From the NCBI GenBank assembly GCA_964016885.1, contig OZ024741.1, forward strand, positions 62,124,001 to 62,188,000: a stretch of 64,000 nucleotides of DNA, in the 5' to 3' direction. Below the pieces are notes generated by a model. The model did no database searches, was not told the DNA's origin, and saw only the letters and a list, made by a program, of their open reading frames with translations. The translations under genes and the position numbers were made by a program. Origin of the DNA: Eledone cirrhosa. Lineage: Eukaryota. Each line of letters opens with the position of its first letter. Within the stretch, counting starts at the first letter, position 1. Below, piece after piece: positions 47,888-48,559 of this stretch.

Positions 47888-47946
47888 GAACAAGTAGGAC
47901 CCCGACGGCTAAGCTCAAGCCGTTTCGACGGCTAATTCTGGACGTT
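47888..47946 (-). mobile_element. Family A short arm only
   Basis: gaacaagtaggaccccgacggctaagctcaagccgtttcgacggctaattctggacgt. Confidence 0.85.
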
Positions 47947-47956
47947 ATTATTACTA

Positions 47957-48065
47957 GTTCAAATCCCGCCGAGGTTGACTTTGACTTTCATCCTTACGGG
48001 GTCGATAAAATAAAGTACCAGTAATGCACTGGGTAATTGGTGGCCTTGTGCCTAAAGTAGAAACA
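47957..48065 (+). mobile_element. 5'-truncated SINE with 10-bp TSD
   Basis: TSD ATTATTACTA at 47947-47956 and 48066-48075. Confidence 0.9.
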
Positions 48066-48114
48066 ATTATTACTAATTTCCTAATCTGTGGCGTATATCT
48101 TTTCTCTTCTCTCC

Positions 48115-48174
<60 letters not shown>

Positions 48175-48559
48175 GGAGAGAAGAGAAAAGATATATACGC
48201 CACAGATTAGGACGTTAGTAATAATAACAACGAGAAAACAAGACAACGAACGAAAATAAGGCAAAACGAAAAAACAATATTTTGAAGGGGAAACCTTAAA
48301 CAATTCTTTTTTAAAAATAAAATTACAAACGAAAGACACAGAACTCCAGGATCTTCAGTCTATGAGATGGACTTTGGTAGTTTCGACCCCAACTAAAGGT
48401 ACAACTGATCCACCAGAGTGACAAGACTCCAGAGTTACAAGACTCACTATTTAGCATTAATAAAATCTGTATTTAAACTTTACTTCGGTACTGAATACAC
48501 TTTGCTTAGCCGTCAACAGCACACACACACACATACATACACACACACTCATGTATATG

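Follow-up and report, generated by a model that had tools for sequence, protein, structure and literature searches.

At positions 47676-48520 of the 64-kb stretch of Eledone cirrhosa DNA analyzed here (the window, to which all counts refer), the sequence on the far side of a TA microsatellite recurs as an inverted copy fused to the 3′ end of a Penelope-like element (Table 1). The arm of the element at 47886-47943 points inward from the TA tract and its partner long arm is absent. It is followed by the inverted copy (47944-48118) of 48171-48228, which a short interspersed element (SINE) divides into two pieces, then by (TA)26 and the original flank. This order of arm, copy, microsatellite and original had been given in a preliminary description of the sequence and is borne out. 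Folded as DNA, (TA)26 forms a hairpin of 24 pairs (-13.7 kcal/mol). A complete family A insert (47676-47864) adjoins the structure and is itself preceded, on the + strand, by (TA)25. This insert (53/60 identical to the arm at 47886-47943) belongs to another subfamily and represents its own insertion event within the same TA tract. At ~58 nt, the family A arm matches the copied flank in length, probably by coincidence.

Table 1. Features of the locus, with the longest copy of family A in the window
Feature	Position	Strand	Remarks
Complete family A insert: inverted short arm, long arm and 76-nt tail	47676-47864	+	Adjoins the fold-back
(TA)11, left half of target	47865-47886		
Family A short arm, tail-less 3′ end of a Hydra-like Penelope element	47886-47943	-	
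8-nt motif across the arm/inverted-copy junction	47940-47947	+	Recurs in flank at 48210-48217
Inverted copy, distal piece, from 48216-48228 (family B edge)	47944-47956	-	13/13 identical
5′-truncated SINE, 109 bp	47957-48065	+	Younger than the fold-back
Inverted copy, proximal piece, from 48171-48225	48066-48118	-	51/55 columns
(TA)26, symmetry center, putative fold-back primer	48119-48170		
Template, proximal 43 nt, locally single-copy	48171-48213	+	Contig depth
Family B, high-copy repeat	48214-48425		77% to 43665-43853; contig depth
Family C, high-copy Penelope-like 3′ end	48426-48520	+	83% to 7391-7484; contig depth
Longest family A copy: inverted long arm, endonuclease C-terminus fragment, spacer, hammerhead-like fold, short arm	39259-40460		

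The surrounding sequence is microsatellite-rich animal DNA, with 139 tandem-repeat rows and a GC content of 25-54%, and contains non-LTR retroelement remnants together with one bHLH reading frame. This open frame (27267-28670) encodes a helix-loop-helix domain (PF00010, E 3e-17) and is likely a host transcription-factor exon. A non-LTR retroelement with RVT_1 at 16870-17985 occupies 13642-20184, and its 3′ part has a relative of 587 bp in inverted orientation at 13642-14228. A Penelope-like remnant at 51392-53017 carries two hammerhead-like cores, at 51668 (-) and 52820 (+), in addition to an inverted terminal repeat; arms related to it are found at 31931-32065 and 42800-42895. Just to the right of the fold-back, a 108-bp direct repeat (48592-48699 and 49110-49217) shows 98% identity between copies 518 bp apart.

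Family A as a Penelope-like element

Family A is present at 10 sites in the 64-kb window, two of which (62.8 and 63.7 kb) share 99% identity and are not independent. Two arms lie head to head at 8/10 sites, a long arm with a tail and a short arm without one, with TA outside; a TA run borders at least one side at every site. Single arms occur at two sites, and inverted flank is found only at 47886-47943, none being present at the other (20901-21020). The arm at 47886-47943 is 57-58/62 identical to both arms of the copy at 32270-32386. Six of the nine short arms shown, a count that includes this arm and the near-identical pair, end within ~6 nt of its stop point.

The longest copy (39259-40460) retains part of the coding region. 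Its inverted long arm joins the 5′-truncated endonuclease fragment via a short duplicated motif. A segment of 41 aa (39495-39617) matches three proteins (E 3.7e-5 to 9e-4), all of which carry the C-terminal GIY-YIG-type endonuclease with CxxC..E..N..CxH described for the Hydra clade. The first C of CxxC has been removed at the junction in this fragment, and a profile of P0001-P0004 aligns solely from the junction onward, a partly circular result. The CxCX5C linker is present in matched proteins P0001 and P0003 only. Pfam gives no match for the endonuclease pieces, and no Pfam family names the matched proteins. Family A also has a three-stem fold in which the 3′ half of a hammerhead core is present and the 5′ half is degenerate; no hammerhead was found among the 150 of 178 Rfam matches listed. 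No family A copy in the 64-kb window extends to the reverse transcriptase (RT), which in Hydra-clade elements carries RWK and DKT motifs. The endonuclease C-terminus, the arm plan and the TA targets together uphold the earlier designation of the arm as Penelope-like and mark family A as the 3′ end of such an element. Its assignment to the Hydra clade is likely rather than proven, because the hammerhead core is half intact and the RT lies outside the window.

Several other readings of family A are rejected. The arm is not endonuclease-coding, since the profile aligns only past the junction, and a Naiad-like identity is set aside because the C-terminal endonuclease fits Hydra better. Rfam matches of miRNA and snoRNA type are hairpin artefacts, all below the gathering score among the 150 of 178 matches listed. 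The family A motif also occurs at three loci in metagenome contigs (~50% GC), which show little match beyond the motif and are attributed to chance. A second Hydra-like family, at 1628-2525 and 29861-30190, has an endonuclease C-terminus and the same plan as family A. It matches an RT-endonuclease protein (E 5e-8), and its hammerhead core near 2420-2480 looks intact.

The inverted copy and its template

The proximal piece of the left arm aligns with the reverse complement of 48171-48225 at 92.7% identity (E 4.5e-18 in the 64-kb window), and the copy begins at offset 0 on either side of (TA)26. The mirrored-flank alignment scores 89, compared with a median of 15 and a 99th percentile of 35 among 3000 swapped flank pairs; the maximum of this null, 240, probably comes from dispersed repeat copies. 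No other array among the 108 microsatellite arrays of the 64-kb window reaches so high a mirrored-flank score. The arms differ by two neighboring substitutions (48077-48078 vs 48213-48214) and one 2-nt TA deletion. These substitutions lie 2 nt from the SINE duplication and may be one event. All the differences reported earlier for the copied arm (two substitutions, a 2-bp indel and a SINE with a 10-bp duplication) are thus present, and the accompanying claim that the structure is real, not a sequencing chimera, stands on this internal evidence, since the SINE and its target duplication, the dinucleotide change and the indel are all peculiar to the left arm.

The SINE places the events in order. 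Its 10-nt duplication (47947-47956 and 48066-48075) is single in the right arm, therefore the SINE entered the left arm after copying. The first 5-6 nt of this duplication are also SINE tail (3′ ends: ATTAT 7/9, ATTATT 5/9). The element is 96.3% identical to a copy at 58773-58881 and has 2 private differences in 105 columns relative to four window copies. It begins at what we take to be a B-box-like motif of a tRNA-type head, and is presumably akin to cephalopod SINEs. Before the SINE arrived, the junction (47940-48082) would have formed a hairpin with a stem of 8 bp and a loop of 7 nt; this loop is spanned by the SINE duplication, and the two substitutions disrupt the stem. Hairpin arms can be homogenized, including arms as close as these. 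The fold-back had been called datable, which is too strong a term for 2/56 substitutions between the arms (95% range 0.4-13%). The events can be ordered, copy before SINE, but not dated, because of the width of this range, a possible single event behind the substitutions, possible homogenization and the lack of a rate for the species.

The origin of the template is largely evident from contigs of two runs of the same species, X4 and X5, aligned on 48159-48520 at 80% likeness (1366 and 1339 contigs placed). Both runs represent one sample, perhaps that of the assembly itself, and contain 0.63 and 0.59 of the locus words, respectively. Of nine runs four were used; the other two of these, X1 and X2, come from other organisms (share 0.10) and placed no contig on 48159-48520, a result that speaks neither for nor against the template. 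Depth over 48159-48210 is 4.5 in X4 and 14 then 0 in X5, rises to 50-76 over 48211-48223, and reaches summed values of 800-6700 over 48224-48392 and above 800 over 48419-48470. Contigs that match the locus exactly have a depth of 3-5. Depth beyond 48224 ranges from hundreds to tens of thousands, as against single-copy depth over 48159-48210. Among the contig pieces listed, family B copies extend back to 48214 at most and then diverge, and pieces from other family B copies align over 48214-48350, across 48228. Because alignment to these copies continues past 48228, it is the right arm that is original; since the proximal template is single-copy, the inverted copy is local. The template thus comprises 43 single-copy nucleotides followed by the first 15 nt of family B, and its description as host flank applies to the proximal 43 nt, whereas from 48214 onward it is a high-copy repeat rather than plain host DNA. 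The 2-nt deletion of the left arm is absent among the contig pieces listed from X4 and X5, where depth is low, and the right arm also has a hole in X5. These reads neither confirm nor deny the left arm; given that it is not sighted in contigs, its reality rests on its own SINE and the inter-arm differences.

The flank beyond 48229 has relatives in the window at 43665, 7391 and 44163. Family C attains a summed depth of up to 50,000 in the X4 and X5 contigs, with loose ends, and the loose-end consensus of its other copies supplies a hammerhead-like core. Families B and C occur in the same order at two loci (48413-48445 and 43665-44265) and meet at a 16-nt tandem duplication at 48.4 kb. They could be one element or chimeric inserts. 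A purine-rich, 25-nt look-alike of the proximal arm at 38787-38811 (84%, E 0.008) is probably due to chance.

Origin of the fold-back

We consider it moderately probable that the fold-back arose during the insertion of the Penelope-like element, the other end of the break having folded in (TA)n, copied 58 nt and been end-joined. The element endonuclease would cut both strands of the TA tract. The left 3′ end would then prime cDNA at the internal, tail-less start, and synthesis would stop after 58 nt. At the right end, resection would expose a self-complementary TA overhang able to pair with itself, and 58 nt of flank would be copied, probably by a host repair polymerase. More tentatively, the new 3′ end may have snapped back on a 4-nt inverted repeat (48214-48217 and 48225-48228), gaining 4 nt complementary to the cDNA end and leading to end joining. 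The SINE later inserted into the copied arm. Evidence for a single event includes the orientation of the parts, their exact symmetry about (TA)26, the missing partner arm and a stop point common to most short arms in the window. In addition, the divergences are similarly small: 2/56 between the arms, 2/105 for the SINE, and 4-5/62 between the family A arm and its nearest relative. Against it, the retained arm is the tail-less one rather than the tailed one, and inverted flank is missing at the other single-arm site (20901-21020).

The junction itself points to host repair rather than the enzyme of the element. The second half of the 8-nt motif can pair with the final 4 nt of the copied flank, leaving a loop of 7 nt between them, and the recurrence of the motif in the flank suggests synthesis-dependent end joining. 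In a post hoc test, random endpoints yielded an 8-nt junction repeat in 26/20000 trials (strict) or 510/20000 (lenient), and 3/231 local endpoints reached 8 nt. The snap-back step is suggestive only, because the motif was noticed before the test and short repeats are common by chance; the available text of one study puts the chance frequency of junction repeats of at least 4 nt at 43-54% (PMC2943611).

A less probable course is that a palindromic two-armed insert came first and lost its long arm and tail in a later break, at its center or in the TA tract; the TA end then folded back by the same chemistry, copied the flank and was rejoined, with the element as a bystander or fragile site. The junction falls at the symmetry center of the copy at 32270-32386, the closest relative, which is what breakage of a palindrome after insertion would predict, and it matches 2 nt into the second arm of that copy. 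TA repeats, moreover, are described as forming hairpins and cruciforms and as breaking (PMC12972899, PMC13669725, in the portions available). However, most short arms in the window stop at the same place, so this position is not diagnostic. A later break also requires two events, and the divergences show no sign of a long interval between them. The earlier inference of self-priming holds in one respect, since a fold-back at the TA end explains the orientation and has a parallel in LINE-1; its coincidence with the insertion, as against a later break, is the less secure part.

A second TA-centered fold-back in the window also bears on a later break. At 40544-41544 a truncated SINE is joined, through microhomology of 2 nt, to an inverted copy (245 bp) of the sequence on the far side of a TA-rich array of 413 bp, and the whole directly adjoins the longest family A copy (39259-40460) at its short arm. 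The fold-back proper (40642-41544) has no Penelope arm at its junction and has extra templated pieces, in that the array contains a third 39-bp copy and an inverted piece of the array to its left. Its 245-bp arms show 0 differences (upper 95% bound 1.5%), and the adjoining SINE has 3 private differences in 92 columns. The structure may be younger than the SINE, may have been homogenized, may derive from a variant young SINE source or may be an artefact. A junction-spanning repeat of at least 6 nt recurs only in the flank just past the copied end (6 nt, weak). The case shows that a TA-centered fold-back can lack a Penelope arm at its junction, and the process may not be specific to Penelope-like elements.

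It is doubtful that the RT of the element made the copy, either by a jump of the cDNA to flank DNA or by priming of the TA end on a local transcript. Such a copy would have the same sequence, and a hexamer at the cDNA end does recur in the flank at 48210-48215 (200/20000 by chance). A jump to DNA, however, needs the right-hand top strand, which normal 5′ resection would be expected to remove.

The preliminary description had named one finding that would undo its reading, namely that an independent family ends in the 58-bp arm and has inserted here two times, in opposite orientation; capture in trans as a chimeric partner arm would be a variant of this. The flank is high-copy from 48214, its neighbors may be chimeric (families B and C near 48413-48445) and the look-alike at 38787-38811 (E 0.008) lends slight support. 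Nevertheless, an independent terminus is very improbable: depth over 48159-48210 is single-copy in both runs at 80% likeness, family B copies diverge upstream of 48214-48238, and TA-tailed contigs are kept elsewhere, so that a filter on TA ends is not responsible. A fold-back chimera or an inverted misjoin via the self-complementary TA tract is just as improbable: although TA tracts should be joinable in either orientation, the left arm is absent among the public contig pieces listed and the arms of the second fold-back in the window are identical, the SINE with its target duplication, the dinucleotide change and the indel of the left arm would not come from a chimera, and holes are expected in runs that contain only 0.59-0.63 of the locus words.

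Mirrored immediate flanks at offset zero are found at 2/77 TA-containing arrays and 0/31 others in the window, numbers too few for a test. The other close-range palindromes inspected follow the usual Penelope plan, being extended on one side and bordered by TA. These include 29861-30105 and two near-perfect palindromes (99%) at 21378-21718 (341 bp) and 32899-33306 (409 bp), both of which are probably young Penelope-derived inserts. The preliminary description had generalized that these insertions generate inverted duplications. One locus agrees, and the generalization is weak beyond it: inverted flank is found at one of the two single-arm sites, and the other fold-back abuts a SINE. Speculatively, TA-targeting Penelope-like elements, and SINEs that land in the same tracts, may routinely turn TA tracts into self-priming hairpins, and a few per cent of the TA tracts in this genome would then be centers of new, short inverted duplications. 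Such a process, which we regard as unlikely, would produce hairpins and fragile palindromes in the germline throughout the genome by way of microsatellite targeting.

Comparison with known systems

The comparisons that follow draw on the accessible portions of the cited papers. Yeast breaks give rise to fold-back inversions of 2 to ~150 bp with 0-5 bp of microhomology (PMC11724301). As proposed for the present locus, a hairpin-extended end is captured by the other end, and both the size and the microhomology fall in the same range. Yeast fold-backs differ in that no retroelement cDNA is described at the capturing end and in that the primer is a 10-bp imperfect inverted repeat, not a microsatellite (PMC11724301). 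Synthesis-dependent microhomology-mediated end joining leaves a junction-spanning repeat like the one seen here, although a single junction makes this process a candidate only (PMC2943611).

In its purified form, a Penelope-like protein cuts AT-rich DNA on both strands and extends each of them, with synthesis starting at two sites on the RNA by which the tail is defined (PMC11167929). These two start sites account for the long and short arms. Inserts of the Hydra clade resemble family A in their head-to-head arms, one of them tailed, their (TA)n targets and their C-terminal endonuclease (PMC8557442, PMC11167929, PMC3846280). In those inserts both arms are element sequence and TA lies outside, whereas here one arm is flank and the TA tract is the center. 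The family A tail is also longer (~76 nt) than the 30-40 nt described for Hydra-clade inserts. For rotifer Penelope elements, self-priming and the capture of host DNA are discussed, without a fold-back flank structure in the accessible text (PMC3846280). The accessible part of another paper contains nothing on palindromes (PMC13282606), and none of the titles and abstract openings listed from the open-license literature, in which subscription journals are largely missing, concerns fold-back flank copies at Penelope inserts.

The closest parallel is human LINE-1, for which inverted duplication of the reciprocal end has been reported, with one case primed by TA/AT (10.1101/2024.12.14.628481; earlier PMC11702581). 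There, cDNA is made on one break end, and the opposite end anneals to itself, serves as primer for DNA synthesis and becomes attached to the cDNA. The locus described here has the same features: a cDNA end joined to the inverted opposite flank from the break, and a self-complementary primer, (TA)26. It differs from LINE-1 in that the element is Penelope-like, the whole (TA)n tract serves as the putative primer and the copy is 58 bp long. It is also an older event in an invertebrate assembly, whereas the LINE-1 cases come from a cultured or tumor clone. No target duplication is readable inside (TA)n. A single-event origin would show, as predicted from the in vitro data, that the two break ends left by Penelope-like elements are processed separately. 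If common, such fold-backs would be a source of new hairpins and could be counted to measure the frequency with which priming on RNA fails at the second end. The outcome is already known for LINE-1, and the locus, taken by itself, illustrates an established repair outcome well but is not a new system. It would extend a LINE-1 rearrangement of cultured and tumor cells to Penelope-like elements in an animal germline.
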